Assembly (NCBI GenBank): GCA_903856725.1
Contig: CAIOCT010000039.1
Location: forward strand, 26,034-90,033
Length of the DNA stretch: 64,000 nt
From: an uncultured Verrucomicrobiota bacterium
Lineage (GTDB): Bacteria > Verrucomicrobiota > Verrucomicrobiia > Opitutales > Opitutaceae
Reading direction: 5' to 3'
Below the pieces are notes generated by a model. That model searched no databases. It worked only from the letters and a program-made list of their open reading frames with translations, and was not told the DNA's origin. Every line of letters begins with the position of its first letter. The first letter of the stretch is position 1. Made by a program: the position numbers and the translations under genes. Shown piece after piece: positions 26,457 to 61,254 of the stretch.

Positions 26457-26478
26457 TACATCAAGATGCGATGATATG
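26457..26478 (-). promoter_or_regulatory. Candidate transcription-factor operator upstream of metH
   Basis: Minus strand CATATCATC-gcatctt-GATGTA, 15 nt before the metH ATG; the same box precedes metF. Confidence 0.6.
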
Positions 26479-26610
26479 AAAAGGCAAGCTAGTGATTACG
26501 TGACCGTGCGGCGTGATGTTGGGCTCGGCCCAATCGGAAAAAGCAGAGTAAAACACAAAAACCGCGCAGCCTTTAAGATTGCGCTGATGGGGCGCTGGGC
26601 TGGTGCTGGT

Positions 26611-26842
26611 GGCTGTCAGTCGTTCTTTATTTTAAAAAATCTGAAGCAACAGGGAAGGCCGTGAAATTCGGCCACAGTTGCGCTGCGGTAACGCATCACA
26701 GACCCCCATTCTGCCTAAAGGCAGGAGCAAAGCCAATCGGGCAACCGGTGAAGGCGAGGGGCGAGGATGCGCGCTTGCTCACCCGGGATAACGTTACTTG
26801 GTGAGCGAGTGCGTAAGAAATGCGGAGTCCGAACATCTGCCT
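26611..26842 (+). ncRNA. Cobalamin (AdoCbl-type) riboswitch
   Basis: AACAGGGAA-GGCCGTGAAATTCGGCC-ACAGTTGCGCTGCGGTAA core; B12-box variant GCCAATCG..CGGTGAAGGC; 3' GAGTCCGAACATCTGCC pairing with 5' GGCTGTCAGTCGTTC; lies upstream of a TonB-dependent receptor. Confidence 0.9.
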
Positions 26843-27014
26843 TCAGAACTCACCGCGCTGGCGCGCTCGGCGCACTGGCGAGAAACCTTCAACGCTTATT
26901 TGAAGGGTGGGAGTGGATCAAAGTGATCAAGGTCGGTGCTTTCATTATCATAAAAGTGGAAATGAATGCGCTGATCTGACTCGCGATCTGCTCTTGCCTT
27001 AGCAGCAGCCGATC

Positions 27015-28874
27015 ATGAATCAAATCCACTCGGGCGCTTTCGCGCGCCCCCTATGTTTCGTCAGCTTATTAATGGCTAGCGCCGCCATTGCGCAAATAAC
27101 GGCCCCAGAAATTTTGCCGGTCTACGTTCTCACGGCCACTCGCACGCCCACGGCATTGACGACCACGGGCAGTTACGTGGACTCATTCAGTGCGGCTGAT
27201 CTCGCGCGCATGCAGCTGAGCAGCTTATCCTCGGCTCTCAGTGGCATCGCGGGCGCGCCAATTTTTGCCTCCGGGGCCGCCGGCGGGGTCACATCGCTTT
27301 TTCTCCGTGGGGCCAATTCCAACCAGACCTTATTTCTGGTGGATGGCATCCGTTTCAACGACCCGAATACTGATTATGGCGTCGCGCTGGGCGGAATGAG
27401 TGTTGCCGCCGGGGATAGCTTAGAGGTCGTGCACGGCCCGCAAAGCACCCTCTACGGTGGTGAAGCGGTAGGGGGTGTTTTGGCTTTGCACGCAGCGCGG
27501 GGGGCCGGCCTCGGCACGCAGAGCCGCTCGTTTGAGGCTGGAGCTTTTGGAACGTTGCAGGGGGCTATTCACGCTCAAGGAGGCGATCGGGGCTCGGCTT
27601 ACAATTTTTCGGCGATGGGGGGCAGCACGCAAAATAGCCGGCCTAACAATGATTTCACCAGTGCAACGTACGCGCTCCGCCTCGACCGACAAATCAACCC
27701 GCGGTTGGCGTTGGGCGCGACGGTGCGTGGTTTTTTAAGTCAGTATGGCTCGCCTGGTGACCGCTACACGAATGATCCCGATAATAAAGATAGTGAAAGT
27801 AACCAACTCGGGACCATTTTTTTGGAATATAATCCGACGCCGATGTGGACAACCAAAGCCGTGCTGGGTGGGCAGGACCGGCGCTTTGTGGCCCGTGATC
27901 CTGGGCCTGATGGCCTCGTTGAGACCGTCGTGAAAAATCAGCGCATCGTGTTTGATGGACAAAGCACGCTCCAGGTCGGCGAACAACATCGGGTGACGGC
28001 GGGCTTAACCACCGAGGGGCACCATACTCGCAACACGGGCTTTGGGAATATTGATCAGCGGCAGCAACTCATCGCGATTTTTGTGCAGGACGAATGGACG
28101 CCCGTCCCTCGAGTTTTTTTAACGGCTGGTTTGCGGAGTGATGATCATGATACTTTTGGTCGAGCCACTACCGGCCGGGTGACGGCGGCGTGGTTGTCGC
28201 AAAATACTCGCTGGAAAATTCGGGCGACGTATGGAACTGCTTTTCGGGCACCGAGCTTTCTCGATCTTTATGGGCAGAGTTCCTTCTACGTGGGGAATTC
28301 TGCTTTGCGCCCCGAGCAAGCGCAGGGGTGGGACGCGGGCTTTGATTATTTTTTCCCGCATAATCGGGGTAGTTTAAGTGCGACTTGGTTTGATACCCGC
28401 TTTAATAATCTCATCACCTTTGATTTTGCAGTTTTCCCTGGCACCGTGAGAAATGTGGGCCGCGCGCTTACTCGGGGCGGGGAATTTTCGGGTAAATGGG
28501 GCTTCGAACAAGTGGTTCAAATGCGCCTGGCCTATACTTATCTTGAAGCGGACGATCTTACTCACGGCACCCGCTTGCTGCGGCGACCTCGGCACAGTGG
28601 CGCGCTCGATTTATGGCATAATTTCAACGGCGGTCTGAGTGCCGGCGCCGGTTTGACTTGGCAGGCACAACGTGAAGATGTCGATGCGGCCACTTATGCG
28701 ACGATTCGCGCAGAAGATTATGCGATCGCGCGAATTTATACCGCTTGGCAGGTCAGTGCGCGGGTGACGCTTAAAATGCGGATGGAGAATATTTTTAATA
28801 AAAAATATGAAGAGGTGAATGGTTACCCTCAACTGGGACTGGGGTTCTTTGGTGGCTTGGAGATTAAATTTTAA
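27015..28874 (+). CDS. btuB: TonB-dependent outer-membrane receptor, BtuB-like (probable corrinoid uptake)
   Basis: VLTATR TonB-box region, LRGANSNQTLFLVDG plug, GPQSTLYGGEAVGGV, ENIFNKKYEEV, terminal F; preceded by a B12 riboswitch. Confidence 0.85.
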   Translation: MNQIHSGAFARPLCFVSLLMASAAIAQITAPEILPVYVLTATRTPTALTTTGSYVDSFSAADLARMQLSSLSSALSGIAGAPIFASGAAGGVTSLFLRGANSNQTLFLVDGIRFNDPNTDYGVALGGMSVAAGDSLEVVHGPQSTLYGGEAVGGVLALHAARGAGLGTQSRSFEAGAFGTLQGAIHAQGGDRGSAYNFSAMGGSTQNSRPNNDFTSATYALRLDRQINPRLALGATVRGFLSQYGSPGDRYTNDPDNKDSESNQLGTIFLEYNPTPMWTTKAVLGGQDRRFVARDPGPDGLVETVVKNQRIVFDGQSTLQVGEQHRVTAGLTTEGHHTRNTGFGNIDQRQQLIAIFVQDEWTPVPRVFLTAGLRSDDHDTFGRATTGRVTAAWLSQNTRWKIRATYGTAFRAPSFLDLYGQSSFYVGNSALRPEQAQGWDAGFDYFFPHNRGSLSATWFDTRFNNLITFDFAVFPGTVRNVGRALTRGGEFSGKWGFEQVVQMRLAYTYLEADDLTHGTRLLRRPRHSGALDLWHNFNGGLSAGAGLTWQAQREDVDAATYATIRAEDYAIARIYTAWQVSARVTLKMRMENIFNKKYEEVNGYPQLGLGFFGGLEIKF

Positions 28875-28955
28875 AGTACCTTACAAGTAAGCGCAGCCTC
28901 CAGCACTCCACGCTTGCGGCTTTTTTGCGGAGTGAGAAACTGGATCATCCCTATT

Positions 28956-30743
28956 ATGAAGTTATCTATCCCGTCACTTGTTTTGGTGTTCTTTTTCGGC
29001 GCTTCATTTTTACAAGCGGAAGATTTGCGTCACGGTCAGCCGAAGCAGGCGCAGCGGCCTGCGGCTGTTTATGTTCCTGCACTCAGTGCGCTGGTGCCGC
29101 CGGTTGCCAGTGAACTCCGCGAATTGGTTGAACGTTTCAAAACCGACCGAGAATCCCTGCTCCGAGTTTATTCTGTGCCAGGCTCAACGCTGCAGCTACG
29201 GCGCTTGCGGGAATTTTATCAGAGCTGGCAGCAGCAGTTAGATGCACTGCCGTACGCCGCTTTGGGTAATGAGGGGCGCATTGATTGGCAGCTCATGCGA
29301 CTCCAGCTCCGCTATGAACTCGGGTTGATCGCGCGTACTGAAAAACGCCACGCGGAGATGGCCTCCTTCATGGGCTTCGCGGACGACATTGCGACCTTGC
29401 AGGAAACTCGCCGTGAATTCGAACACGTCGCGGCAGCGTCAGCCGCCATCACACTCGGAAAAATTCGCCAGGAAATCGAAGATGCGCAGCGTAAATTGAC
29501 GGGGGCAGCGGCTCTGCCGAATAAAATTTTAGCCTATCGGGCGGCGAGCCGACTGGGCGATTTAAGCAAGACGCTCAAAGATTGGTTTGAATTCTATGAC
29601 GGCTATGATCCGCAGTTTAGCTGGTGGAATCGCGAGCCTTATAAGAAGACTGCCGCCGCCTTAGACGAGTACGCTAAGTTTTTACGCGAGAAAATTGTCG
29701 GGGCCAAAGCGGGAGAGGATGCGCCGATCATCGGTGATCCGATCGGCGCGGAGGGCTTGGCCTTAGATTTGGAACATGAGATGATGCCGTACACCCCGGC
29801 CGAGTTGATTGCCGTAGCGGAAAAAGAATTCGCGTGGTGTGAGGCTGAATGGCAGAAAGTCGCTCGCGATCTGGGCCTCGGGAACGATTGGAAAGCCGCT
29901 CTAGAAAAAGTGAAACATGATTCCGTCGCGCCCGGCGACCAACCGGCGTTGATTGCTAGCATGGCCTACGAGGCGACAGATTTTATTATCAAACGCGATC
30001 TGCTGACCATTCCGCCATTGGCGATTGATGATTGGACGATGACGATGATGTCACCCGAGCGGCAAAAAACTAATCCGTTCTTCTTAGGGGGAGATCGTAT
30101 TATCGTCTCTTTCCCCACGGACACGATGGATCAGGCGGAGAAACTGAATAGTCTGCGGGCAAACAATACGCATTTTTGTCACGCGACAGTTTTCCATGAA
30201 CTTATTCCCGGCCATCATCTCCAGGGCTGGTATGCAGACCGCTTTAATCAGCACCGAGATTTGTATTATACCCCCTTTTATGTCGAAGGGTGGGCCTTGT
30301 GGTGGGAATTTCATCTCTGGGATCTTGGCTTTCAACAAACTCCGGAAGATCGCGCGGGAGCGCTTTTCTGGCGGACGCATCGCTGCGCGCGCATTATTTT
30401 CTCACTCAACTTTCATCTCGGGCGATGGACGCCGCAGCAATGCATCGATTTTCTTGTGGAAAAGGTTGGTCACGATCGCCACACCGCGACGGGTGAAGTG
30501 CGACGGTCATTTAATGGCGATTACTCGCCGCTCTACCAAGTCGGTTATATGATGGGGGCGATTCAGTTGCGCACGCTTTATGCGGATCTCGTCAAAACCG
30601 GTAAGATGACGGAGAAGAATTTCCACGATAGTATTCTTAAGGGTGGCATTATGCCCATTGAGATGGTGCGCGCGCATGTCACCGGCACCGCTTTGCCGCA
30701 GGATTATCGCTCGTCATGGAAATTTGCCGGCGAAAAACCTTAA
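28956..30743 (+). CDS. DUF885-family secreted protein (putative metallopeptidase-like)
   Basis: Signal peptide; HELIPGHHLQ, VEGWALWWE, QVGYMMGA motifs; start moved to MKLSIP. Confidence 0.85.
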   Translation: MKLSIPSLVLVFFFGASFLQAEDLRHGQPKQAQRPAAVYVPALSALVPPVASELRELVERFKTDRESLLRVYSVPGSTLQLRRLREFYQSWQQQLDALPYAALGNEGRIDWQLMRLQLRYELGLIARTEKRHAEMASFMGFADDIATLQETRREFEHVAAASAAITLGKIRQEIEDAQRKLTGAAALPNKILAYRAASRLGDLSKTLKDWFEFYDGYDPQFSWWNREPYKKTAAALDEYAKFLREKIVGAKAGEDAPIIGDPIGAEGLALDLEHEMMPYTPAELIAVAEKEFAWCEAEWQKVARDLGLGNDWKAALEKVKHDSVAPGDQPALIASMAYEATDFIIKRDLLTIPPLAIDDWTMTMMSPERQKTNPFFLGGDRIIVSFPTDTMDQAEKLNSLRANNTHFCHATVFHELIPGHHLQGWYADRFNQHRDLYYTPFYVEGWALWWEFHLWDLGFQQTPEDRAGALFWRTHRCARIIFSLNFHLGRWTPQQCIDFLVEKVGHDRHTATGEVRRSFNGDYSPLYQVGYMMGAIQLRTLYADLVKTGKMTEKNFHDSILKGGIMPIEMVRAHVTGTALPQDYRSSWKFAGEKP

Positions 30744-30795
30744 GTCAGGCGCAGCTGGTTTGTAATATAATACGTTACAAACCGGCACTCGGGTG

Positions 30796-31539
30796 TTAGC
30801 GGGCGAGCGCGATTAAGCGTTCGAGCAGGTCGGAGGTGGTGAGGTAGTTGGACCAGCCATAAGCGGCAGTGGCTGCGGTGGCAAGTTGCTCGGGATCATT
30901 GCTGCGCGCGGCACGGGCGAGGTTCAGGCGTTGCTCTTCTTGTTGCCGCGTCAAAGAACTCAGGAGGGTTCGGGGCGGCCAGGGAAAGGGAAAGGCGGCG
31001 ACGCGGTCGATGGGCGATAAGCTGGCAAAGTGCTGCCACCAGCTTGAAAATAATGGCGAACTCAGCAGCCCATGGGTGAAATCATCGTCTCGAGCCACGA
31101 CGAGAAAATGGGTATCGGGGAGCACCTCGCTGTCGATCCAAGTCCAGGTGAGTTCGGTCGCTGCGAGAGGCGTGACGAGGGAGCGTTCGAGTCGAGCGAG
31201 CGAGGTGCGGAGCTCGATTTTAGCGTGGGGGTTTCGCCACCATTCGCCTGTGGTCACTGGTTGGTTGGATTTTAGGTGGCGGCTAGGACCCGTGTAGAGA
31301 TTGGCTTCGGACTCGGTGCCATGGAACGGAAAATTTATCTGCCAGTGTTCGCTGGGGTGACCGGATTTTAAGCTAAGGCAGCGTTGGATGACATCGCTAT
31401 TTAAACGACCCGTGGGATTGATCGCACCCGCAAAGTGCTGGGCTTGATCTGCCGTGAGGCGGGCGGGTGGCCAGAGCTGTTCGCCGATAAAAATGAGGCC
31501 AGTATTTTCTGGGCGGGGTGCGGGCGTGGGCGCAGTCAT
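30796..31539 (-). CDS. Stand-alone, diverged target-recognition domain of MmeI-like type IIL restriction-modification enzymes
   Basis: NPTGRLNSDVI, WQINF, ANLYTGP, WWRN, LARLER..VTP, PDTHFLVVARDDDFTHGLLSS, FPFP, AAYGW recall the C-terminal half of MmeI-like enzymes; no methyltransferase motifs; start moved to MTAPTP, 4 nt after the recQ stop. Confidence 0.7.
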   Translation of the reverse strand: MTAPTPAPRPENTGLIFIGEQLWPPARLTADQAQHFAGAINPTGRLNSDVIQRCLSLKSGHPSEHWQINFPFHGTESEANLYTGPSRHLKSNQPVTTGEWWRNPHAKIELRTSLARLERSLVTPLAATELTWTWIDSEVLPDTHFLVVARDDDFTHGLLSSPLFSSWWQHFASLSPIDRVAAFPFPWPPRTLLSSLTRQQEEQRLNLARAARSNDPEQLATAATAAYGWSNYLTTSDLLERLIALAR

Positions 31540-31543
31540 GGGC

Positions 31544-33415
31544 TTAGTCCGAGAAGGCCATCCGTGAATTGGTCTGTAAATATTCAGCAATCGTCCGAGT
31601 GAAAATCCCCCCAAATTCAGCGCGCTTCTTTTCGCCGACGCCAGTGATGCCTTCCAGCGTTTTTAGCTGAACGGGATAAGCGCGCGCCATTTGGCGGAGG
31701 GTGGCATCGCCAAAAATAATATAAGCGGGTACCTGGCGTTCGTCGGCGAGTCGCTTGCGCAGGGTGCGGAGGCGTTCGAAGAGGATTTCATCGCAGGTGA
31801 TGTCGCCTTCGCGGCGCGCGCTTCGCTTTGCTTTCGGTAAGTCCATTGGCTTGGTGAGCGTGATGGGGGTGCGGGCCAGCAGGACGGTGCGGCCGGCTGG
31901 AGTGAGCTCGAGCGTCGCAAATTCGCCTTCCGTGACGGCGAGGTAGCCGAGGCGCATTAACTCACGCCCGATGTGGGCCCAGTGCGGGCGGCCCAAATCC
32001 TTGCCGATCCCGTAAGTGGTTAGGCGATCATGACCCCATTTGCGGATTTTTTCAGTGTCGGCACCAGTCAGCACCTCGGTGAGGTGGTTCATCCCGACGC
32101 TAAAGCTGCTGTTTTGGGCGATGCGGTAGACGCAGGAGAGGAATTTTTGGGCTACGAGAGTGCCGTCGTAGGTTTCGCGTGGCTCAAGGCAGTTGTCACA
32201 GGCGCCGCAGTTATCGAGCGGAAATTTTTCACCAAAATAATCCAAGAGCTCCGCGCGGCGGCAACTGCCACTCTCGGCGTAGTGGACAATTTGGCGGAGT
32301 TGGGCGCGGGCGATCGTTTGTTCGTGCGCGTTCGTGATCTCGTCGAGGAAGTGGGTTTGTTTCGCAATATCGCCGGCGCTGAAGAGGAGCAGGCAATCGC
32401 CAGGCAGGCCATCGCGGCCCGCGCGGCCGGTTTCCTGATAATATCCCTCAATGTTTTTGGGCAGGTCATGGTGGATAACCCAGCGAACGTTTGGTTTGTT
32501 GATGCCCATGCCGAAAGCGATCGTCGCGCAGATGATCCGCGTTTCATCGCGGAGAAAAAGTTCTTGGTTGCGCGAACGTTCCGCGGCGTCGAGTCCCGCG
32601 TGGTAGGGACGGGCGAGGAAGCCGCGACCAGCCAGTGATTCGGCCACGCGTTCTGCGGTGGCTCGACTCGCGCAGTAGATGATGCCGCTTTCGGTTTCCC
32701 GCGTCCGGACGAAATTGATGATTTGTTTCGCTGGCTGATCTTTGGGGATGACGCGGTAAGACAAATTGGGGCGGTTGAAACTGGCGACAAAGGTGTGCGG
32801 TCCGGTCAGGCGGAGATGTTTGATGATATCATCGCGCACGCGGCCGGTGGCGGTCGCCGTGAGGGCCATAACAGGTACACCCGGTAGCAGGTCGCGCAGC
32901 TTAGCAATTTGGCGATATTCGGGGCGAAAATCGTGACCCCATTCAGAAATGCAATGGGCTTCATCGATGGCTAGAGCGGTGACATTCCAGCCCTTTAGGT
33001 TGGCTTGCCAATTGTCGAGCATCAGGCGTTCGGGTGCGACGTACAGCAGGCGCCATTCGCCACGGTGCAAGCCGCTCAGGCGGGAGCGGGCTTCATCTGC
33101 GCTGAGGGTGGAGTTCAGGTAGGTGGCGGCAACACCGGCGGCTTGCAACTGATCAACTTGGTCTTTCATCAACGCGATCAGCGGTGAGACCACGACCGTC
33201 AGGCCTGGGCGAAGGAGGGCCGGCAGTTGAAAGCAAAGCGATTTACCACCCCCGGTGGGCAAGAGGGCAAAAACATCCTGATCAGCCAGCGCGGCCTCAA
33301 TGATCTCGCGTTGCAGTGGACGGAAAGCTCCGTAGCCGAAGGTAGTTTTAAGGGTGAGGAGAAGGTCATCCACAGGAAGAGGAGTGTGGATGGGGGAGCA
33401 ATCGTTAGCCGGCAA
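31544..33415 (-). CDS. recQ: ATP-dependent DNA helicase RecQ
   Basis: PTGGGKSLC, DEAHCISEWGHDFRPEY, YYQETGRAGRDG, Zn-binding RQC, HRDC (RQVPAYIIFGDATL). Confidence 0.97.
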   Translation of the reverse strand: MPANDCSPIHTPLPVDDLLLTLKTTFGYGAFRPLQREIIEAALADQDVFALLPTGGGKSLCFQLPALLRPGLTVVVSPLIALMKDQVDQLQAAGVAATYLNSTLSADEARSRLSGLHRGEWRLLYVAPERLMLDNWQANLKGWNVTALAIDEAHCISEWGHDFRPEYRQIAKLRDLLPGVPVMALTATATGRVRDDIIKHLRLTGPHTFVASFNRPNLSYRVIPKDQPAKQIINFVRTRETESGIIYCASRATAERVAESLAGRGFLARPYHAGLDAAERSRNQELFLRDETRIICATIAFGMGINKPNVRWVIHHDLPKNIEGYYQETGRAGRDGLPGDCLLLFSAGDIAKQTHFLDEITNAHEQTIARAQLRQIVHYAESGSCRRAELLDYFGEKFPLDNCGACDNCLEPRETYDGTLVAQKFLSCVYRIAQNSSFSVGMNHLTEVLTGADTEKIRKWGHDRLTTYGIGKDLGRPHWAHIGRELMRLGYLAVTEGEFATLELTPAGRTVLLARTPITLTKPMDLPKAKRSARREGDITCDEILFERLRTLRKRLADERQVPAYIIFGDATLRQMARAYPVQLKTLEGITGVGEKKRAEFGGIFTRTIAEYLQTNSRMAFSD

Positions 33416-33566
33416 GCTCTCAACCTACGTAATTTGGGGCTATGCCGTTTTGATCGCAGATGAGTGGCGGTGCCTCATCGGATAATTTTCTAGTTATCGA
33501 TCAAAACTGTGACACCTCGTCTCATTTCCCGTTGACCGAAGGGAGCACTCTTAGAAAGATGGCCGC

Positions 33567-34940
33567 ATGGTCCCCAGTGTTCTAATCGTCGATGACGAAA
33601 AGCATACCCGCGAAGGTTTGCAGCAGGCTTTGCAGGAACATTACGACGTGTCGGTGGCTGCCAGTGCCGATGAAGCCTTTAATTTAATGGAAGCGCAGGA
33701 ATTCGAGGTCATCTTGACCGATTTGCGGATGCCGGGGAAAAGCGGGCTAAAGGTCATCGATAAGGCGCTGACGCTCGTGAACAAGCCGGCGGTATTGATG
33801 ATGACGGCTTACGGTAATATTGAGTCCGCCGTAGAAGCGATGAAGCGTGGGGCGGTAGATTTTCTGACCAAGCCGGTCCAGATAGAGCGCTTGGAAATTC
33901 TGATTCAGCGGGCCTTGAAAACCAAAACCTTAGAGGTGGAGGTGAAACAGTTGCACGAACGGCTCGACCATAAATTTAATATTGAAGGCATCGTCGGGCA
34001 TTCCACCAAATTGGTTGAAGTGATTGCGCGCATGAAGCTGGTCGCGCCATCGAAGGCGACGATTTTAATCGAAGGCGAGACGGGCACGGGCAAAGAATTA
34101 ATTGCGCAGGCAATTCATCAGGCGAGTCCTCGGGCGCGGGCACCCTTTGTGCCGGTGCACTGTGCTGCGTTGCCAGCGGCGCTGCTGGAGAGCGAATTAT
34201 TCGGACATGAGCGGGGCTCTTTTACCGGCGCCACGGAGCGCCGGGAGGGACGGTTTGAAAGTGCCGATGGGGGGACGATATTTTTAGATGAAATCGGGGA
34301 GATTGGCCCAGAAATTCAGGTCAAATTACTCCGCTTCATCGAAACTAAAAGTTTTGAGCGCATTGGTAGTACCAAGACGATCACGGTTGATGTCCGATTG
34401 GTGGCGGCGACCAACCGCAATCTTGAGCAGATGGTGAAGGAAGGAAAATTTCGAGAGGACTTATTTTTCCGACTCAATGTGGTGCGCATCACCATGCCGC
34501 CATTGCGGGAACGGACCGATGATATTCCGGTGCTGCTGGAGCATTTCATTAAAATGTATGCGGCTGAGAATGCCTACGAACCGGTCTTAATTGAGTCGGG
34601 GGCCATGCAGCATCTCCAACGCTATCCGTGGCCAGGTAATATTCGCGAGCTGCGCAATTTTTCTGAGAACGCCGTCGTATTGCGCCGGGGCGGCAAAATT
34701 ACGGAGTTCGATCTGGAGCCTAAATTTCGGGGAGAAGTGGCCCCGCCCCCTTCCTTGCAGACGCCGAGCCCAGCGAATCCCTATTCCGTGGAGGCTCATG
34801 CTAAAATTTTGTTACGGGAGGCGCTGATGAAAGCCCGCGGTAATCGCACGAAAGCCGCCCAATTGCTCGGTATCAGTCGCCGGACTTTACACCGTAAGTT
34901 GGCGCAGTCACCTGAGCTCGATGTGCTCGATCGGGGATGA
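33567..34940 (+). CDS. NtrC-family sigma-54-dependent response regulator
   Basis: Receiver domain (VDDE, TDLRMP), [26 protein letters not shown], Fis-type HTH. Confidence 0.95.
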
Positions 34941-35001
34941 GGCTTTTTATTCTGAGTCGATTAGCTCGGTCCAGTTGCTCCTTTAGCTTTGGCTTGCACG
35001 C

Positions 35002-47949: not shown

Positions 47950-48201
47950 TCAGGCCACTGCGACCTGACCGGCAAGCGCGGGCGCAGTGCTCTGTTTGGC
48001 CAGATGATTGAAGAACTGATCACGACGCTCGCGGGCGGTCGTGAGGCACTTAGTGCCCAAGGAGCGGCGAATGCGCTCTTTTGTAAATGGGGTCGGGTAG
48101 ACCGTGTAATGCAAAAACCACGTTCCGTTGTTATTCCAGAGGTGGTGGTTGGGGTTGGCTTCGCTGATGCGAAGGGCGGCGAGGGTGATGACGTTAGACA
48201 T
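47950..48201 (-). CDS. 83-aa conserved hypothetical protein resembling an integrase arm-type DNA-binding domain
   Basis: HLWNNNGTWFLHYTV..RIRRSLGTKCLTTARERRD; three predicted strands plus a helix; downstream of a SAM riboswitch. Confidence 0.8.
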   Translation of the reverse strand: MSNVITLAALRISEANPNHHLWNNNGTWFLHYTVYPTPFTKERIRRSLGTKCLTTARERRDQFFNHLAKQSTAPALAGQVAVA

Positions 48202-48300: not shown

Positions 48301-48338
48301 GAGGAGGAGTTTTTTTGTTAGAAGGTGTTACCCCTCTC

Positions 48339-48433
48339 ACATCCGGGTGACTTGCGTCACTCGAAACCACCGTGATCACTCCTAGACCCGGTTGGCAGAA
48401 CCGACTGTTGCCAGTCGATCCTTTCCTGATGCG
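48339..48433 (-). ncRNA. SAM-I-clan riboswitch (SAM-I or SAM-I/IV variant)
   Basis: P1 GCATC/GATGT; ATCAGGAA J1/2; P2 AGGATCGACT/AGTCGGTTCT; P3 GCCAACC..GGTGGT (covariant of GGCAACC..GGTGCC); P4 GTGAC-GCAA-GTCAC. Confidence 0.8.
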
Positions 48434-48794
48434 AGGCGGAGCGTGCGAATCAGCGAACGGAAGACCAGATAAATTTTATTCGAGACTTATCTTCTGATAA
48501 TTATTAATTAATAAATATATGCTATATATATACTTACGTTATATGATGTGTCGAAAAAAATTATAATTTAATGAATTCAGTGGGTAAGTGCAGGGCCTAA
48601 TAATTGCTGCGTGAGAATTATTTTTAAGTCTGCAGTCAGATCGGTCACTTCACCTGTGAGGGTGTTATGGTGACAGTTAACCGGCCTTTCACTCCGCGTT
48701 TTCCGTATCCTCCGCATTTCATTAAGATTTTTAAAATTAGCAGAGCGCTGGCGCGCTGGCATTTGCTTTTTAGCCAACTTTGCTAAGTTGGCTG

Positions 48795-50569: not shown

Positions 50570-50630
50570 GGAAAGGTTGGGGGAGGATTAAGCGGCGGAG
50601 CAGTGATAATGCGCTGACATGCAGGGAGGC

Positions 50631-52497: not shown

Positions 52498-52510
52498 CCG
52501 CGGCGATTAA

Positions 52511-53251: not shown

Positions 53252-53255
53252 AGAG

Positions 53256-54287
53256 TCAGGTGGCATCATCTTCAGTTTCATCATCAGTCTGAGCGCGGGT
53301 GGGCGGCAGGTGGGCTTTGAGGTTAGGGCGCTTGCCGCCCTCCGGGGCAGCCATGTGGGCGATGAGACGATCGTTAAAGGTTTTGGCGGGGTCGTGCCCC
53401 ATGTTTTTTAAGGCTTGGACGAGCGCGGCTACTTCAACCAGTCGGGCAATGTCGCGACCGGGGCGCACATAGAATTCAATATGGGGCACGCGAACGCCAA
53501 GGATATCATAATAATTTTCCTCAAGGCCGGTGCGTTCTTCCACCACCTCGGGTGACCATTCGCGGAGGGAGACGACCAGGTCGATGCGTTTTTCAAGGCG
53601 AATGCTTTTAACTCCGAACATTTCTGCGATATTAATGATGCCGATACCGCGACACTCCATGTACCCGCGGTTCAACGGACGGGAGCTAGCGGAAAGTTCA
53701 CGTTCATCGAGGAGCTTAATCACGGTGAGATCATCGGCTACTAACGAGTGGCCACGCTCGATCAGCGCGAGCGCACATTCAGATTTCCCGATGCCGCTAT
53801 CACCACGAATCATAACACCGATGCCCTTGATATCGAGAGTGGTCGCATGTTCGGTGCCCGAAGCTGCGAATTCATTGTCGATGCACAGCGTGGCGGCATT
53901 CACGAAATTCATCGTGATGAGCGGGGTGCGAAAAATCGGCAGCTTCATCTCCTCGGAGACGGCTAGCATCGGGTGGGTCGCTACGTAATTCCGGGTGAGC
54001 ACAATGCAGGGGATCCCGCGCCGCACCATTTCTTGAAAAATCTCGATTTGCTGACGCTGCGGCAGCGTCTTGAGGTAGGTCATTTCGGCCGCGCCAAAAA
54101 CCTGGATGCGTTTATTGGCAAAATATTTAAAAAAACCGGTGAGGGCCAGGGAGGGGCGATTGATCGAGCCTTCCCGGATGAGGCGATCCAAATCAACTTC
54201 TTTGGTCACTAGCTCGAGTTGCAATTTCTCACGATAGGTTTCGTAGAAATGAGCGACGGTGATGCCGGGAAAGGTTTTAGTGGGCAT
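53256..54287 (-). CDS. hprK: HPr kinase/phosphorylase
   Basis: GDSGIGKSECAL, LVADD, MECRGIGII, VRPGRDIA. Confidence 0.95.
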   Translation of the reverse strand: MPTKTFPGITVAHFYETYREKLQLELVTKEVDLDRLIREGSINRPSLALTGFFKYFANKRIQVFGAAEMTYLKTLPQRQQIEIFQEMVRRGIPCIVLTRNYVATHPMLAVSEEMKLPIFRTPLITMNFVNAATLCIDNEFAASGTEHATTLDIKGIGVMIRGDSGIGKSECALALIERGHSLVADDLTVIKLLDERELSASSRPLNRGYMECRGIGIINIAEMFGVKSIRLEKRIDLVVSLREWSPEVVEERTGLEENYYDILGVRVPHIEFYVRPGRDIARLVEVAALVQALKNMGHDPAKTFNDRLIAHMAAPEGGKRPNLKAHLPPTRAQTDDETEDDAT

Positions 54288-54377
54288 GGGCGAGTGGGTG
54301 ACGGTACGAGCTGGGCTTAGACTAAGATGTTCACGGCAACAAGCTCCTACTCGTGGCGGTTAGTCCGCCACAGTAGG

Positions 54378-55115
54378 CTACAGATTAAAATCCTGACCAA
54401 GGTAAAGCTCGCGAGCCTGCGCATCGTTGATGAGAAAATCGCCGGAGCCTTCCGTCATGACTTTGCCTTTGTGGATAATATAGCCGCGGTCGACAATCCG
54501 CAGGGTTTCGCGCACATTGTGGTCGGTAATCAAGACGCCAATGCCGCGCCGTTTGAGATCGAGAATGATTTTCTGTACTTCAGCGACAGAGATGGGGTCG
54601 ACGCCCGCAAATGGTTCGTCCATGAGCAAAAAGCGGGGACGCGTCACGAGGGCCCGCGCGAATTCCAGTCGGCGGCGTTCGCCACCCGACAGCGTGTAAG
54701 CTTTTTGTTTAGCCAAGTGGCTCAAGCTGAGTTCCGCGAGATGGTGGGCGACTAAGGCGGACCGTTCACGACTGGGGACGGGCAGGGTTTCAACAATCGC
54801 GAGAATGTTTTCAGCCACGGTTAGCTTGCGAAAGACGGAGGATTCTTGCGGTAGGTAGCCGACGCCAAGCCGTGCGCGGCGGTGCATGCGCAGTTGGGTG
54901 GCATCTTGGCCGTGAATAAACACTCGTCCGGTGGTGGCCGGAACGAGGCCGACTACCATGTAAAAGGTGGTAGTCTTGCCGGCGCCATTAGGTCCAAGGA
55001 GGCCGACGACTTCGCCAGCTTGGACGTTAATATTGACGCCATTCACGACTGGCCGTTGGCCATATATTTTAACCAAACCCTCGGTGCGAATCTCTGTGGT
55101 GGTAGCCATGCTCAC
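54378..55115 (-). CDS. lptB: LPS export ABC transporter ATP-binding protein
   Basis: GPNGAGKTTTFYM, LSGGERRRLEFARAL, DEPFAGVDP, TDHNVRETL. Confidence 0.95.
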   Translation of the reverse strand: MSMATTTEIRTEGLVKIYGQRPVVNGVNINVQAGEVVGLLGPNGAGKTTTFYMVVGLVPATTGRVFIHGQDATQLRMHRRARLGVGYLPQESSVFRKLTVAENILAIVETLPVPSRERSALVAHHLAELSLSHLAKQKAYTLSGGERRRLEFARALVTRPRFLLMDEPFAGVDPISVAEVQKIILDLKRRGIGVLITDHNVRETLRIVDRGYIIHKGKVMTEGSGDFLINDAQARELYLGQDFNL

Positions 55116-55678
55116 GGTTGCTTAGGGCTAGGGACAGTTGCTGGCGCGGATTTTTTTTCCTGATCAAAGCCCAGATCTTTAATTGCGGGGAGCGTGATTC
55201 GCGTGGGCGCACTCTCGATTCCTTCAATGACGGCGCGGCGTTCGCCCCGATAAAGCACCATCTTGGGGCCCGTGGCGGTTGCGCCGTTAGCTAAATCTTT
55301 AATGGTCGGATGATCAGTCAAAATAATCTTATCATCATCGGGTAAAACTTCGGCGCGCCCGCAGGTCGCTTCACGATCAGATTGAAGGATCTGAACGTGG
55401 CCTTCCGCGATGAGCGATTTAAACCGGGCCAGTTTGCCGATCGTCGCCGTGGGGTCGCCTTTGCGGGTGGTTGTTACGGTTAGCTGATCGCAGGTGAGCT
55501 TGAGGTTGGTGCCGCTGACCTTAACGTTTTTCGTGAAGATGAAAGTGGTCAGCGTATCCGTGCTCCGCATATCGAGTTGTTCGCTATCGATCACCGTTGG
55601 TTGAGTCTCCGTGGCTTGGGCTAACGCGCCCCAGAGGGTGGCAGATAATAAGAGGGGAAGCAGGCGGCGCAGATTCAT
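55112..55678 (-). CDS. lptA: LptA/OstA-family LPS transport protein
   Basis: Signal peptide, beta-jellyroll pattern, position between lptC and lptB. Confidence 0.8.
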   Translation of the reverse strand: MNLRRLLPLLLSATLWGALAQATETQPTVIDSEQLDMRSTDTLTTFIFTKNVKVSGTNLKLTCDQLTVTTTRKGDPTATIGKLARFKSLIAEGHVQILQSDREATCGRAEVLPDDDKIILTDHPTIKDLANGATATGPKMVLYRGERRAVIEGIESAPTRITLPAIKDLGFDQEKKSAPATVPSPKQP

Positions 55679-56154
55679 TTTAATATTTCCTTAAATTCGG
55701 CGTGGAAAATAACGCGTACATTGTGGGCGATTGTGACTTGATGTTCTTTGTAAGCGTAACGCCAGTCGCTGCCAGTTGCCTCAAATTCATCATTAATTAC
55801 CCGAATGGTTTGCGGGCCTGTAATGACGGCTTCCGTTGGTTGGATAGCGGCGCGGGGGCTGAGAATCATGGTCTGGACTTTTTCGTCTGCTTGGCCCGAG
55901 AAAATTGAAAGAGTTAATTCCTGCACTGCGATATGATTGGGATTTAGATAACGCGCTTCTGAGCCGCGCACGAGCCAAGCGCGATAGCCTTCCGGCGTAA
56001 AGTGCGGCAGGCTGAAATTAATAATGGGGCGATTGCCGGAAATTTGAGTGGTGGCCCCCATCGCCCCCGCGAGCGGGGTGAGGAGGAGAATCAAAAATTG
56101 CAGGAAAGGGATCACGCGGAGATCATTGACCTCGCTGGGCCAAGATTTGTTCAC
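55675..56154 (-). CDS. lptC: LptC-like LPS export protein (start uncertain)
   Basis: N-terminal hydrophobic segment, beta-rich body, kdsC-lptC-lptA-lptB synteny. Confidence 0.65.
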   Translation of the reverse strand: MNKSWPSEVNDLRVIPFLQFLILLLTPLAGAMGATTQISGNRPIINFSLPHFTPEGYRAWLVRGSEARYLNPNHIAVQELTLSIFSGQADEKVQTMILSPRAAIQPTEAVITGPQTIRVINDEFEATGSDWRYAYKEHQVTIAHNVRVIFHAEFKEILK

Positions 56155-56632
56155 AAATTTCGCGGACGGCCCCGTGCCCAGCAGGTCGAGTGGGGGTATA
56201 GCGTGCGGCCTCTAACGCGGTCGGCATAGCCGCAGTCGGAGCGACGCCGATGCCAGCCCAAGCAATGGCCGGCGCATCGATATCATCATCGCCCATGTAG
56301 CAAATCTGGGCGGCGCCTAAGCCCAATTGCGTCGCGAGTTCTTGGAGGGCGGCTAATTTGTCGGTGCGACCTTGGATGAGATGAGGCACGCGGAGTTCTG
56401 TCGCGCGCCGGGTCGTGGCCTGCGAGGCGCGGCCGGAGATCCAGGCGACGGCGACGCCAGCTTGGTGCAAGCGGACCAGGCCCATTCCATCGAGAATCGA
56501 GAAATTTTTTGTTTCCACGCCATCGCTAGAGATAGCCACCGTACCGTCGGTTAAGACGCCATCGACATCCATGGCGAAGAGGCGAATGGCGGCCCACTGG
56601 GCGGGCAGGGGATGAGAGGCGGGGTGCGACAT
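56123..56632 (-). CDS. kdsC: KDO-8-phosphate phosphatase (HAD family)
   Basis: DVDGVLTDG, ISGR, YMGDDDID, GHGAVRE. Confidence 0.9.
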   Translation of the reverse strand: MSHPASHPLPAQWAAIRLFAMDVDGVLTDGTVAISSDGVETKNFSILDGMGLVRLHQAGVAVAWISGRASQATTRRATELRVPHLIQGRTDKLAALQELATQLGLGAAQICYMGDDDIDAPAIAWAGIGVAPTAAMPTALEAARYTPTRPAGHGAVREICEQILAQRGQ

Positions 56633-56644
56633 GGAATGAAGGCC

Positions 56645-56671
56645 AGATTCTGGGCTAGGCTCAGAATGACA
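56645..56671. repeat. Single degenerate REP-like palindrome
   Basis: AGATTCTGGGCTAGGCTCAGAATGACA resembles the AGATTCTTCGCT.CGCTCAGAATGACA REP class; one copy in the window. Confidence 0.45.
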
Positions 56672-56710
56672 AGAGTGAAGCTCGTCGATTCAGGGGTGAG
56701 CGGTTCGCTT

Positions 56711-57649
56711 TTAAATAAGTTTGGGCAGGGCCGCTTGAATCGCGGTGCGATGGGGTTCGAGGTGGGGGGGCAAGGAGAGTCGCGTGCCGAGTGTGGTCGG
56801 TGATTCGTCAATGGTGAAGCCCGGTTGGTCGGTCGCGATTTCAAAAAGAACGCCACCGGGCTCACGATAATAAATCGATTTGAAGTAGGCGCGGTCGATT
56901 ACAGGGCTGACGGCCAAGCCGCTTGCCACGAGTACAGTGCGCGCCGCAGATTGATTGGCATCATCGTTGGCTCGAAAGGCGACGTGGTGAATGGTGCCGC
57001 TTCCATTCAAGCCGCGCGGCAGATTCGGATCGGTCAATAAGTCGACATAGGTGCCGGGTCCGCCCTGATCGACAGTGTAGCGAGTGCGGTAGCCTGCTTG
57101 AGCGATTAAACGATAGCCCATGGAGTCTGTGAGCACCGTTGCGGTCGCTGCGGCGGAGAGCAGGGCCAGCGTGGTGCTGTGGAATCCGCGAATGGCATTT
57201 TCAAGCGGCACATCCTCGGATGGTGCGGGTGATCGCAAATCAGTTTCGCTGGTGGCGATTAATTCAAGGCGGAGATCATCAGGATCGAAGAACGGGAGGA
57301 CCTCATCCGTAAAGCGATTTTCTCGCGGGAGGTGTTTGATGTTCATTTGGGCGAAACGCTGCTGCCAGAAATCCAACGATCCCAAGGGCACCGCGAAGCC
57401 TGTCGCATAAGCTTGGCCGGTGCCGGGGCGACCGCGCTTGAGCCCAGCCCACGGAAAAAATGTTAGGCAGGTCCCCGGGGAACCAAGATAATCGCCGTAG
57501 TAGAGGTGATAGGTGCCCGGGTCATCCTGATTTACAGATTGTTTTACGAAACGCAGCCCCAGCACCTTGGTGTAGAAGTGCAGATTGCGGCTGATGTCGG
57601 AAGAAATCGCCGTGATGTGATGCAGTCCGTGCGTGGTGGTCGAGTGCAT
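56711..57649 (-). CDS. VOC-family ring-cleaving dioxygenase (MhqO/A-like glyoxalase)
   Basis: GLHHITAI, VNQDDPGTYHLYYGD, HHVAFR, DRAYFKSIYYREPGGVLFEIATD. Confidence 0.92.
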   Translation of the reverse strand: MHSTTTHGLHHITAISSDISRNLHFYTKVLGLRFVKQSVNQDDPGTYHLYYGDYLGSPGTCLTFFPWAGLKRGRPGTGQAYATGFAVPLGSLDFWQQRFAQMNIKHLPRENRFTDEVLPFFDPDDLRLELIATSETDLRSPAPSEDVPLENAIRGFHSTTLALLSAAATATVLTDSMGYRLIAQAGYRTRYTVDQGGPGTYVDLLTDPNLPRGLNGSGTIHHVAFRANDDANQSAARTVLVASGLAVSPVIDRAYFKSIYYREPGGVLFEIATDQPGFTIDESPTTLGTRLSLPPHLEPHRTAIQAALPKLI

Positions 57650-57675
57650 GCCGGCTTTAATCAAATAAATTTAGT

Positions 57676-58119
57676 TCAGCGCTGGAGGCCGATTTTTTTG
57701 CAAAGCCGGCTGAGGTCGGCAAGTTCGGTGAAGGAAAGAGTATTCATTTCACGAGTCACTTTACCCACAACTTTCGGCCATAAGTTAGCGATGAAAGTTT
57801 GGCCATTTTCCGTCAATTTAACGACAACGAAGCGGCGGTCAGCGGGGTCGCGTTCGCGTAGCACGTAGCCAGCTTTTTCCAGATTATCGACCACGAGGGT
57901 CAGGTTTCCGCCGCTTTTTAATAATTTCTCCGCCAGTTCACTTTGGCAGAGCGGGCCGATATGATAGAGTGCGTCGAGGACACCAAACTGGGTAAGCGTG
58001 AGCGTTGCTGGAAGGGCTGTCTGGATGCGGACCGTGACCGACTCAGCGCTGCGCGCTAATTTAATAAAAGCATTAAGGGCATTGATTTCCTCGTTTGTGC
58101 CGCGGTGTCGAGTTCCCAT
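57676..58119 (-). CDS. MarR-family transcriptional regulator (MhqR-like)
   Basis: LTLTQFGVLDALYH, SGGNLTLVVDNLEKAGYV, DRR..VKLT. Confidence 0.92.
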   Translation of the reverse strand: MGTRHRGTNEEINALNAFIKLARSAESVTVRIQTALPATLTLTQFGVLDALYHIGPLCQSELAEKLLKSGGNLTLVVDNLEKAGYVLRERDPADRRFVVVKLTENGQTFIANLWPKVVGKVTREMNTLSFTELADLSRLCKKIGLQR

Positions 58120-58125
58120 GAAAAG

Positions 58126-58160
58126 AATGCTTTAAGCCAATGGTTTCATGTCAAAGCATT
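58126..58160. promoter_or_regulatory. Probable MarR auto-operator
   Basis: Inverted repeat AATGCTTT...AAAGCATT enclosing the imperfect palindrome TGGTTTCATGTCAAAGCA, directly before the marR start. Confidence 0.55.
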
Positions 58161-58193
58161 TATATGAAATAGCTATAAATTAACCATAACTCA

Positions 58194-58634
58194 TTAAGCC
58201 AGATCGATTTTATTAACTCGAGCTAAGTGACGGCCGCCCTCAAAGGCGGTATCAAGCCACACTTTAACAATCTTCAAAGCTTCCTCTTCCGTGACGGTCC
58301 GTTGGCCGAGGGAGAGGCAGTTGCCGTCGTTGTGGGAGCGATTCCAGATCGCGACTTGTTCATTCCAGCAGAGGCCGCAGCGGACGCCTTTAATGCGATT
58401 GGCCACGATGGCTTCACCGTTACCAGAGCCGCCTAAAATAATCCCGCGCTCAACTTCTCCGCGGGCTACCGCCACCGCTACCGGGCGAATAAAGTCGGGA
58501 TAGTCGCACGGGGCATCAGAATTCGTACCGCAGTCGCGAACCGTGTGCCCATCGGTGAGCAGCATCGCCTTAATTTTTTCCTTATAGGCAAAACCCGCGT
58601 GATCAGAGCCCAGAGCGATAGTGAATTTTTTCAT
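58194..58634 (-). CDS. rpiB: Ribose-5-phosphate isomerase B
   Basis: SDHAG, DYPD, GGSGNG, RSHNDGN, FEGGRH..R. Confidence 0.93.
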   Translation of the reverse strand: MKKFTIALGSDHAGFAYKEKIKAMLLTDGHTVRDCGTNSDAPCDYPDFIRPVAVAVARGEVERGIILGGSGNGEAIVANRIKGVRCGLCWNEQVAIWNRSHNDGNCLSLGQRTVTEEEALKIVKVWLDTAFEGGRHLARVNKIDLA

Positions 58635-58741
58635 AATAACGAGGAAGCGATTGTGGGGAAAGGGGCGACAGCCGTTATTCCTAGGCGTAGGAATGGCCGC
58701 AAACTAATTTCTATGCATGGCGCTCGTTCGCTGGGCTTTGT

Positions 58742-59428
58742 CTACCACGAGTCGATTAGTCGTAGAAATTTGGCAGTATCCGAGAAATTGGGAAATACAG
58801 CCGTTGGCTGATGAGCGGCCAATTCCGCCATGCTGTAGCGACCAGTGGCTACCCCGATAGTCTTGGCGCCGATCACTCGGCCGCATTCGATATCGTGGGG
58901 CGTGTCACCGATGATGACGGTTTGCTCGGGACGAAAATCGATGGCGTGGCGTTCTTTGGCTCGGCGCAAGGCATGGGGACCGAGGTCGTTGCGGCGCGGG
59001 CTATCATCGGCAAATGCGCCAAATTCAAAATAGGGCCACACTTGAAAGTGGGTGAGCTTGATTTCGGCCCCGCGCTTCAGGTTGCCGGTCAGTAACCCTT
59101 GGGCCACGTCGGGCCGTTGTTGCAAAATTTCCAGCAGATCGCGCACCCCGGGGAGGACTTGGCCAGGTGGGCCGTCGCGCAGTTCTTCCGGTAGGATTTG
59201 CAAATAGGTTTCCAAGTAATCGTGCGCATTCTGCGGCGTATCGGGCAAGCCGACATGGCGAAAAACTTCTCCGGTAATCCAAGTGTCGGTGCGGCCCGCC
59301 CAATCAATTTGGGTGAGATCATATATTTTTCCGAAACGTTGGGTAAGGGCCTTCTCCATCGCGCGGACGCCAGCGCCGTGGGAAACAATCATGGTTCCGT
59401 CAATATCCCAGAGGATAAGTTTTTTCAT
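58742..59428 (-). CDS. HAD-superfamily phosphatase
   Basis: WDIDGT, LLTGN, IIGDTPHDI motifs. Confidence 0.9.
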   Translation of the reverse strand: MKKLILWDIDGTMIVSHGAGVRAMEKALTQRFGKIYDLTQIDWAGRTDTWITGEVFRHVGLPDTPQNAHDYLETYLQILPEELRDGPPGQVLPGVRDLLEILQQRPDVAQGLLTGNLKRGAEIKLTHFQVWPYFEFGAFADDSPRRNDLGPHALRRAKERHAIDFRPEQTVIIGDTPHDIECGRVIGAKTIGVATGRYSMAELAAHQPTAVFPNFSDTAKFLRLIDSW

Positions 59429-59668
59429 GGGGCCGAGCGGTGGCGAAGCAGATTCATGCCAGAGGCGACGTAGGCGGGACCGTGGCGGGAGCTCAAGAAA
59501 TAAAGCGAGTACCCAGCTCCTCGTTTAACCGTGGTTCACCCGGGTCCGTGATCCTGCTTGCCTCTCAATTAGCATCATCTTCAGTCAGTAGAAATCTGCT
59601 CGCCGGCTTAATGACGAGTACATCAGATTCATTTAATTGACTGCTTATTTTTACGTCCGCTTGCCGCC

Positions 59669-59920
59669 ATGCCCGAAGCTCAAATAAAAATTGCTCTGAT
59701 CCAGCTGCATGCGGGGATTAAACAGGCTGACGGCGCCGTCATTTCACAAACGCTCGGCCAGCTTGAAGAATTATTGGCAACACACCGTGATAGCTTGCAC
59801 CCGCAGTTAGTTCATTTTTTAGCCGGACGCAGCTACGCGAAAGCGTTAGCTTATTTAGGGGGCGGCGCGGCACTCACCGTACCACCCGCCTCGCCCCCGG
59901 GAGGCTGCGGCGGACATTGA
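59669..59920 (+). CDS. Small helical hypothetical protein
   Basis: Plausible ATG; LHPQLVHFL..RSYAKALAYL; stop overlaps the next start. Confidence 0.65.
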   Translation: MPEAQIKIALIQLHAGIKQADGAVISQTLGQLEELLATHRDSLHPQLVHFLAGRSYAKALAYLGGGAALTVPPASPPGGCGGH

Positions 59921-60306
59921 TGAATGATGGGAGCAAAATTTCTGTGCAGGGCGGCCAAGCCTTGGGGCAAAATCCTTTTGGTGCGCTCAGTGCGGCCGGT
60001 TTACCCGTGGCGCCAGCTGGTGGGGTGAGTCGCCCATCGGTCTCGAATGCCGTTACGAAAAATCGTGGACGGGTCGATATACTCCGTGAAACTGCTGGGC
60101 GCGGCGGAAAGACCGTCACTGTCGTGACAAATTTTACAGGCATTGGTTTGCCCGAAAAAGAGCAACTCGCTAAAAAAATGCGCAATGCGTGTGGGGCGGG
60201 TGGGACAGTTAAAGACGGGCGAATCGAAATACAGGGAGACCGCCGCGAAATCGTGGCAAAAATTCTAACAGAGGCAGGTTTCCGTCCTGTTTTTGCCGGC
60301 GGGTAG
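59917..60306 (+). CDS. yciH: SUI1/eIF1-family translation factor (YciH-like)
   Basis: GRGGKTVT, CGAGGTVKDGRIEIQGD. Confidence 0.9.
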   Translation: MMNDGSKISVQGGQALGQNPFGALSAAGLPVAPAGGVSRPSVSNAVTKNRGRVDILRETAGRGGKTVTVVTNFTGIGLPEKEQLAKKMRNACGAGGTVKDGRIEIQGDRREIVAKILTEAGFRPVFAGG

Positions 60307-60343
60307 TCGATCATAGCCCCGCGAGCTGTCCGTCTACGAGCTA

Positions 60344-61222
60344 CTACGCCGCTAATCCTGCGGCGAGGGCGAGCGCGCTCCGTGCTCGATTCATAATATA
60401 GAGATGATACCCCGGCGCGCCGTTAGCCAGCAGTCCGCGGATTTGATCGAGCGCCCAGTCGATGCCGATCATTTCAACCACGTCGGGGTTTTCAGCAGCG
60501 ACTTCAAGTCGAGTGATGAGTGGGGGTGGGAGGTGTGCGCCGCACATTTCGGTGAAGCGGCGCACCTGCTTGAGCGAAAGTACAGGCATAATCCCAGGCA
60601 CGATTGGCACCGTAATACCAGCGGCACGGCATTTCTCAACGAATCGATAATAAACACTGTTATCGAAAAATAGCTGCGTCGTAATAAACGCGGCGCCCGC
60701 ATCGACTTTACGCCGGAGGTGTCCGAGATCGAGATCGAGGGAAAGAGCTTCCGGGTGTTTTTCGGGATAACCCGCGACACCCAAACAGAAGTCAGCGTGG
60801 CGTGATTTTAGCAGCTGCACGAGCTCACTTGCATGGCTCAATCCGTCGGGTGCCGGGCGGAACTCGGTGTCACCCTTCGGTGGGTCGCCGCGCAATGTCA
60901 TGATATTGCGAAAGCCGGCTTGGTGCAATTGGTCGGCCGTGGCGCCGAGTTCAGCCCGCGAGTGCCCCACGCACGTCAGGTGCGGCATGACCGTGAAGCC
61001 GAATTCATTTTTTAACATCGCACTGGCTTCGGCGGTGCGATCGCGCGTGGTGCCGCCGGCTCCATAAGTAACCGAGACAAAATCAGGCGCGATATGCTGC
61101 AGGCTCGTGGCGGTCTGGCGGAGGGTCAAAAGGCCGGCTGCATCCTTCGGTGGAAAAAATTCCAACGAACGTACGATGGGCTGTGTGGTCAGTAACTGAG
61201 AGATTAACCGATCGGGTGACAT
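60344..61222 (-). CDS. metF: 5,10-methylenetetrahydrofolate reductase
   Basis: SLEFFPPK, SVTYGAGG, HLTCVG, LRGDPP, YPEKH, ITQLFFD. Confidence 0.96.
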   Translation of the reverse strand: MSPDRLISQLLTTQPIVRSLEFFPPKDAAGLLTLRQTATSLQHIAPDFVSVTYGAGGTTRDRTAEASAMLKNEFGFTVMPHLTCVGHSRAELGATADQLHQAGFRNIMTLRGDPPKGDTEFRPAPDGLSHASELVQLLKSRHADFCLGVAGYPEKHPEALSLDLDLGHLRRKVDAGAAFITTQLFFDNSVYYRFVEKCRAAGITVPIVPGIMPVLSLKQVRRFTEMCGAHLPPPLITRLEVAAENPDVVEMIGIDWALDQIRGLLANGAPGYHLYIMNRARSALALAAGLAA

Positions 61223-61232
61223 TAAATATCAA

Positions 61233-61254
61233 TACATCTGTATTTGATGATATG
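61233..61254 (-). promoter_or_regulatory. Candidate transcription-factor operator upstream of metF
   Basis: Minus strand CATATCATC-aaataca-GATGTA, 10 nt before the metF ATG; matches the metH box. Confidence 0.6.

Follow-up and report, generated by a model that had tools for sequence, protein, structure and literature searches.

A putative SahR-type operator upstream of metH, metF, and metK-ahcY in a lineage of Verrucomicrobiota

SahR, a repressor of the ArsR family that responds to S-adenosylhomocysteine (SAH), has been described in alpha-, delta-, and some gamma-Proteobacteria, where it is associated with a 20-bp palindromic operator and a core regulon of sahR, ahcY, metH, metF, and metK (PMC4239095). 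SamR of the Xanthomonadales is distantly homologous to SahR (about 30% identity) and has a 24-bp palindrome at methionine and S-adenosylmethionine (SAM) genes, while the operators of MetR and MetJ are ATGAA-N5-TTCAT and tandem 8-bp met boxes, respectively (PMC4239095). The DNA analysed here, henceforth the window, is a stretch of 64,000 nucleotides (contig C39, positions 26034-90033) of the 2.79-Mb assembly G000 (GenBank GCA_903856725.1) of an uncultured Opitutaceae bacterium (Verrucomicrobiota); C62 and C85 are other contigs of the same assembly, and the window sequence was detected in lake-water metagenomes. In the window, metH and metF are each preceded by a copy of the same box. This box is likely to be the operator of a SAM-cycle regulon bound by the only protein of the genome that combines an ArsR-type helix-turn-helix (HTH) with a methyltransferase domain, hereafter the SahR-like protein.

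Both genes are encoded on the minus strand. The gene metH (22593-26441) encodes a cobalamin-dependent methionine synthase of 1282 aa (Pfam S-methyl_trans, Pterin_bind, B12-binding_2, B12-binding, and Met_synt_B12), and metF (60344-61222) a methylenetetrahydrofolate reductase of 292 aa (Pfam MTHFR, E-value 3e-90). Their start codons are at 26441 and 61222, and the gene strand upstream of them reads TTTTCATATCATCGCATCTTGATGTAAAGATAcgtccattcATG (metH) and TTTACATATCATCAAATACAGATGTATTGATAtttaATG (metF). The two near-identical boxes on one strand that a preliminary description of this DNA had reported can be read directly in the sequence: TTTTCATATCATCGCATCTTGATGTA at 26457-26482, 15 nt before the ATG of metH, and TTTACATATCATCAAATACAGATGTA at 61233-61258, 10 nt before the ATG of metF, both on the minus (gene) strand. 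The box starts given there were retained, whereas the ends at 26478 and 61254 fell short, each box being 4 nt longer (to 26482 and 61258). Searched with up to three mismatches, the box pattern occurred in the window only at these two places and was absent from 100 dinucleotide-preserving shuffles; no further copy within three mismatches was found in the whole 2.79-Mb genome. The likeness of the two sites extends further downstream, GATGTA-nn-GATA being common to both.

For conservation within the genus, MetF and the N-terminal part of MetH were located in 36-40 same-genus genomes, and the upstream regions were aligned (30 promoters each). Upstream of metF, metH, and metK, the operator is conserved in the genus among flanks that cannot be aligned, the MetF proteins themselves being 72-96% identical. 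The block CTTTACA-TATCATCnnATnCnnATGyATTGAT was retained in 28/30 metF promoters and the block CTTGCy-TTTTCA-TATCATCGAATCTTGATGTAAAGATAC in all 30 metH promoters; the boxes are conserved in orthologous promoters. Five genomes carry the metH operator variant CTTGCATTATATCATTACATCCTGATATGTAGAT; these same five metH promoters have a 3-nt deletion between CTTGC and TATCA, and in five metF promoters there is a 2-nt insertion (CG) between CTTTACA and TATCA. Both length changes indicate that the upstream, -35-like element is separate from the operator proper.

The symmetry of the box had initially been described as a CATC-N7-GATG dyad, which is present in this genome and is not in a conserved register among the genus relatives. 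There, the inner G of GATG is G, T, C, or A, and CATC changes to CAAC, CAAT, or CATT without compensating changes; the dyad, and with it a hairpin, was hence rejected. What is kept is the symmetry TATCA-N16-TGATA, inside which lies ATC-N2-GAT; its centre is 2.5 bp away from that of the CATC-N7-GATG dyad. The conserved unit, TATCAnnnnATCnnGATnnnnTGATA, is 26 bp long and two-fold symmetric, with wATCw half-sites at positions 1-5, 9-13, 14-18, and 22-26 that are arranged > > < <. Its layout, TATCA n3 wATCn | nGATw n3 TGATA, amounts to two overlapping TATCA-N8-TGATA palindromes with an offset of 8 bp. That the element is one symmetric unit with four half-sites follows from the metK sites, e.g., TATCATCGCATCAGGATTCCATGATA, which fit the pattern on both strands; such symmetry at the DNA level would be expected of a site for a dimeric DNA-binding protein rather than of an RNA element. 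The metH operator (26451-26476, minus strand; TATCATCGCATCTTGATGTAAAGATA) has all four half-sites and a TATCA-N8-TGATG sub-palindrome inside, and the metF operator (61227-61252, minus strand; TATCATCAAATACAGATGTATTGATA) reads TATCA-N16-TGATA and ends 4 nt before the ATG. The 18-20 bp unit TATCA-N8-TGATR contained in the 26 bp is clearest in the metH variant of the five genomes, ATATCATTACATCCTGATAT, and a near-ideal form of the operator, TATCAAgATATCATGATATcTTGATA, was found in another family of the order. The arrangement suggests that two dimers are bound per operator and, read as SahR-type, would show that operators of this type can be doubled into a 26-bp site.

A position weight matrix (PWM) built from 33 distinct genus sites was scanned over the whole genome and gave three matches: metF (score 52.9), metH (49.9), and C62:45705-45735 (28.7), the next score (16.8) being the metF site on the other strand. 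Downstream of the third site, after 48 nt, comes metK (C62:44492-45655), and ahcY follows metK after a gap of 20 nt (gene identities with Pfam). With this site at metK-ahcY, the putative regulon covers the complete SAM cycle with all four of its steps. A PWM match at metK/ahcY had been predicted, and exactly one further site was found, upstream of metK-ahcY; all three sites of the genome sit at metH, metF, and metK-ahcY, and the proposal of a methionine/SAM-cycle regulon was supported. In the genus, the pattern TATCANNNNATNNNRATNNNNNGAT matched in 40/41 genomes (1-4 matches each), and a reversed control gave none. These matches fall at metH, metF, and metK; two extra ones (G029:C64 and G022:C606) look like chance. 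A strict match was located 40-70 nt upstream of metK in 39 of the 40 genus genomes with metK, and the 40th has a site with one base changed. One genus member carries an extra operator upstream of metE, which encodes the cobalamin-independent methionine synthase (L167, G013:C233:14470-14494).

The genome has four ArsR-type HTH matches, a single one of which belongs to a fusion of HTH and methyltransferase. This SahR-like protein of 312 aa (C85:17096-18034) has an HTH_5 match (46 bits) spanning residues 13-58 and a Methyltransf_11 match, of the class I type (89 bits), spanning residues 152-246; members of the SahR family have about 300-340 aa, with the ArsR/SmtB winged HTH at the N-terminus and the methyltransferase-like domain at the C-terminus. 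Its glycine-rich motif for SAM or SAH, VADLGAGEG, is intact, and it is named metalloregulator ArsR/SmtB family transcription factor in the public record. Of 41 genus genomes, 39 encode it (81-98% identity). Among solved structures, no full-length ArsR-methyltransferase fusion was found, matches being confined to the separate domains. A SahR-like regulator encoded elsewhere in the genome had been suggested from the boxes, and this single fusion on an unlinked contig fits that suggestion; in related lineages, it is linked with the operator through its gene neighbourhood and through co-occurrence.

These ties emerged when 301 genomes across the phylum were scanned for the pattern, the regulator, and MetK. 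Throughout the order Opitutales, the regulator is present in 62/63 genomes and at least one strict pattern match in 54; in family f26, a match lies 40-70 nt upstream of metK in 20/20 genomes listed. In the rest of the class, the regulator gene and metK are divergent neighbours in 13/13 genomes of genus g61 that carry the regulator and in eight further lineages of Verrucomicrobiae, and the spacer between metK and the regulator gene in those lineages carries the same operator architecture. The arrangement in g61 is compact: the sahR start codon is followed by 12 nt, TATCAACGCATCGAGATTTATCGATA, and the metK ATG, the last operator base forming part of this ATG. The start-to-start spacer is thus only about 40-45 nt long, the operator reaching the metK ATG, and an invariant TTGAC stands 17 nt upstream of the first half-site. 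The divergent sahR-like/metK pair is present in 13 of 22 species-level g61 genomes (L145-L154, L164) and absent from 9; the pattern was found in 12 of the 13 genomes with the regulator gene, the 13th having AATCA in place of TATCA, and nowhere in the 9 genomes that lack the gene (0/9). Genus g61 is presumably Akkermansia.

To place the operators relative to promoters, tRNA genes of this genome were used as a reference. The motif [CG]TTG[AC] stands 36-58 nt upstream of 25/42 tRNA genes, compared with about 7.5% expected; it is often CTTGC and usually preceded by an A-tract, and T-rich sequence (TCTTTT, CTTCTT) is frequent 17 nt downstream of it. We infer that [CG]TTG[AC] is the -35 element of the lineage, as a working consensus. 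A clear TATAAT-like -10 element could not be defined at the tRNA promoters, and a reading of the box itself as a canonical TTGACA/TATAAT promoter was dropped, the -35-like part being plausible and the -10 not convincing. Upstream of the metH operator by 6 nt lies CTTGCC (26483-26488, minus strand), in which CTTGC is kept in the genus despite the 3-nt change in distance, and the metF operator is adjoined by the near-invariant CTTTAC (61254-61259, minus strand), which is a separate element because five genomes have the 2-nt insertion between the two; both are presumed -35 elements. Very short leaders without a Shine-Dalgarno sequence precede metH, metF, metK, and the sahR-like gene. Accordingly placed, the operator would span about -24 to +2 at metH and about -29 to -4 at metF, which are classical repressor positions. 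At metK in the Opitutaceae, 5 nt separate the end of the operator from an invariant downstream CTTGC that is read as the -35 element, and the operator would therefore lie at about -67 to -42. The metK leader (C62:45656-45703) has a GC-rich stretch and then a T-run between the invariant CTTGC and the ATG, GGCTGCCGCGGCTTTTTTT; the T-run is read as the -10 region and may alternatively belong to a small attenuator-like hairpin.

Several observations weigh against the SahR-like protein as the regulator or limit the case for it. In this genus, its gene is on another contig, unlinked to the presumed targets, and no operator was found upstream of it, only a conserved promoter-like CTTGTCA...CATAG; the site at the regulator gene that had been predicted is thus missing. 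The operator of 26 bp with four half-sites differs from the reported 20-bp palindrome (compared by length), and eight Opitutales genomes have the regulator and lack a strict pattern match. For the g61 split, the hypergeometric probability is about 2e-5, a value that overstates independence since the genomes are related and the counts are not independent events. The presumed position of the metK operator is less typical of simple steric repression. Lake metatranscriptomes yielded four short mapped contigs, none across the metH promoter, which is too thin for start sites. Finally, 26-bp palindromes of the same type, TATCAATATATCATGATTTATTGATA, stand directly upstream of two thioredoxin genes (L139, G243:C4:499149-499174; L140, G243:C10:7729-7754) in another verrucomicrobial family that has no SahR-like match, so the motif type is not exclusive to the SahR-like regulator. 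These distant matches were rejected as regulon members because they precede thioredoxin genes, and they look like a separate regulon with a look-alike operator.

Some of these observations bear on the most probable alternative, namely that the operator is real and bound by a different transcription factor, such as a small ArsR protein or a member of an unrelated family, the SahR-like protein doing something else. The sahR-like gene without an operator in this genus would fit this, as would the two other ArsR-type proteins encoded in the genome, and the near-identical palindromes before the thioredoxin genes imply that other factors can recognise TATCA-type palindromes. It is nevertheless unlikely given that many Verrucomicrobiae have the sahR-like gene and metK diverging from a spacer that holds the operator, that in g61 the operator accompanies the gene (12/13 against 0/9 genomes), and that the SahR-like protein is the sole candidate with a SAM/SAH-binding fold.

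With the SahR-like protein as the probable regulator, the following mechanism can be proposed. The protein would bind the operators at the metH, metF, and metK-ahcY promoters, and its methyltransferase-like domain would, by analogy with SahR, sense SAH. At metH and metF, the operator begins 0-6 nt downstream of the -35-like element and stops 4-9 nt short of the ATG; its extent would thus take in spacer, -10 region, and start site, and a bound regulator would block RNA polymerase. A build-up of SAH would release the repressor, and SAH hydrolase, methionine synthase, the supply of methyl-tetrahydrofolate, and SAM synthetase would be raised together. Binding itself, sign of regulation, effector, promoter positions, and the stoichiometry of two dimers are what we infer. 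The position at metK fits an occlusion of upstream promoter contacts and leaves room for another mode of action. It is conceivable, if quite unlikely, that one SahR-like protein acts in two modes, repressing at the core promoters of metH and metF and, at metK-ahcY, activating or acting only via upstream contacts, with the four half-sites recruiting two dimers at an 8-bp offset. If that were true, methionine regeneration on the one hand and SAM synthesis with SAH removal on the other would respond differently to the effector.

That the box is no protein operator but only a core promoter common to these genes, or an RNA element of the 5' leader, is very improbable. As the leaders are very short, the box does sit where the promoter must be; it abuts the -35-like elements, and base pairing of CATC...GATG in RNA is conceivable. 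However, conservation is as high at the supposed spacer positions as at the ends, the two-fold symmetry is one of DNA with matches on both strands at metK, and the putative stem has no compensatory change. Only 3 promoters of the genome carry the element, all of them of the SAM cycle, whereas its tRNA promoters are without it; metK and metH/metF differ in where the element stands with respect to the -35-like sequence, and no Rfam family matches at either box.

The 83-aa protein encoded at 47950-48201 (minus strand), which had been offered as a more speculative regulator in a riboswitch-to-protein cascade, is scarcely credible in that role: a sub-threshold SAM-I/IV riboswitch match does lie directly upstream (48304-48437, minus strand; 36.4 bits, the gathering score being 41.1; E-value 6e-4) and the open reading frame is conserved in 37/41 genus genomes, but homologues occur in 22/22 g61 genomes, irrespective of whether these carry the operator, and most f26 and several Opitutaceae genomes with an operator at metK have none, so that no co-variation with the operator is seen. 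Some genomes hold 5-6 copies, and the sole Pfam hit of the 83-aa protein is a weak, sub-threshold DUF6538 match. The family was found in 53/301 genomes of the phylum, and its multiple copies suggest a small protein derived from a mobile element.

Adjacent to metH, a cobalamin riboswitch (26593-26858, plus strand; 51.9 bits) precedes a gene for a TonB-dependent receptor (27015-28874, plus strand; Plug and beta-barrel) that is divergent from metH, and metatranscriptome contigs cover this riboswitch. Cobalamin (B12) uptake and the B12-requiring methionine synthase hence share one intergenic region with two different controls.

Taken together, the sites describe a concrete and testable transcription circuit of the methyl cycle, with three operators, one candidate sensor-regulator, and a predicted effector, in a phylum with almost no characterised regulators. 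A working -35 consensus is supplied for the lineage, its promoter assignment being presumptive. In genus g61, which we take to be Akkermansia, regulator and operator are paired in some species-level genomes and absent in others, which provides a natural experiment, and a point of entry, in a cultivable and medically studied organism.

Among the known systems, SAM/SAH riboswitches differ in that there is no Rfam match at the boxes, a box-to-ATG distance of 4-15 nt, and no stem covariation. MetR (LysR family) and MetJ differ as well, the element TATCA...ATC..GAT...TGATA resembling neither operator. SamR is, like the present regulator, a distant SahR homologue with a palindrome longer than that of SahR, and it differs in its scope, which by description is the whole pathway from homoserine as opposed to the SAM cycle alone here.

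Another counterpart was found on chromosome II of Leptospira interrogans, whose regulator aligns over its full length to the SahR-like protein (34% identity over 296 residues, E-value 2e-44). In the Leptospira sequence (NZ_CP020413.2, L166 3825-3848), a perfect 24-bp palindrome, GGATATCAAGATATCTTGATATCC, stands immediately upstream of the ArsR-methyltransferase gene, which heads a cluster with ahcY, a gene for a 4Fe-4S protein, and metH. Judged by its sequence, this cluster is a SahR-type system in Spirochaetota; no published description of a regulon was found for this Leptospira gene. The palindrome contains TATCA-N8-TGATA, a sub-palindrome as in the metH operator here, and differs in being a single palindrome of 20-24 bp, compared with the 26-bp double site, and in the regulator being first in the operon that it presumably controls.

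SahR itself is the closest described system. The regulator directly upstream of metF in S. meliloti gives a full-length alignment to the SahR-like protein (31% identity, E-value 9e-29), while the operator candidate there, CACATAAACATATCTTTATGTG, differs in sequence from the verrucomicrobial operator. Common to both systems are the ArsR wHTH (winged HTH) joined to a SAM-methyltransferase-like domain, the predicted targets metK, ahcY, metH, metF, and occasionally metE, and a palindromic operator at the promoters. They differ in the host, which is a member of the Verrucomicrobiota as opposed to Proteobacteria, and in the regulator of this genus being unlinked and without an operator of its own, unlike most described regulons; in other Verrucomicrobiae, the regulator gene does lie next to metK, with an operator in the spacer. 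Full-text searches for a SahR regulon described in Verrucomicrobia or Akkermansia returned only author-name matches. In architecture, targets, palindromic operator, and homology, the system would share most features of the SahR family, and it is most likely no new mechanism but the known SahR system, with its operator doubled and in a phylum that is new to it.

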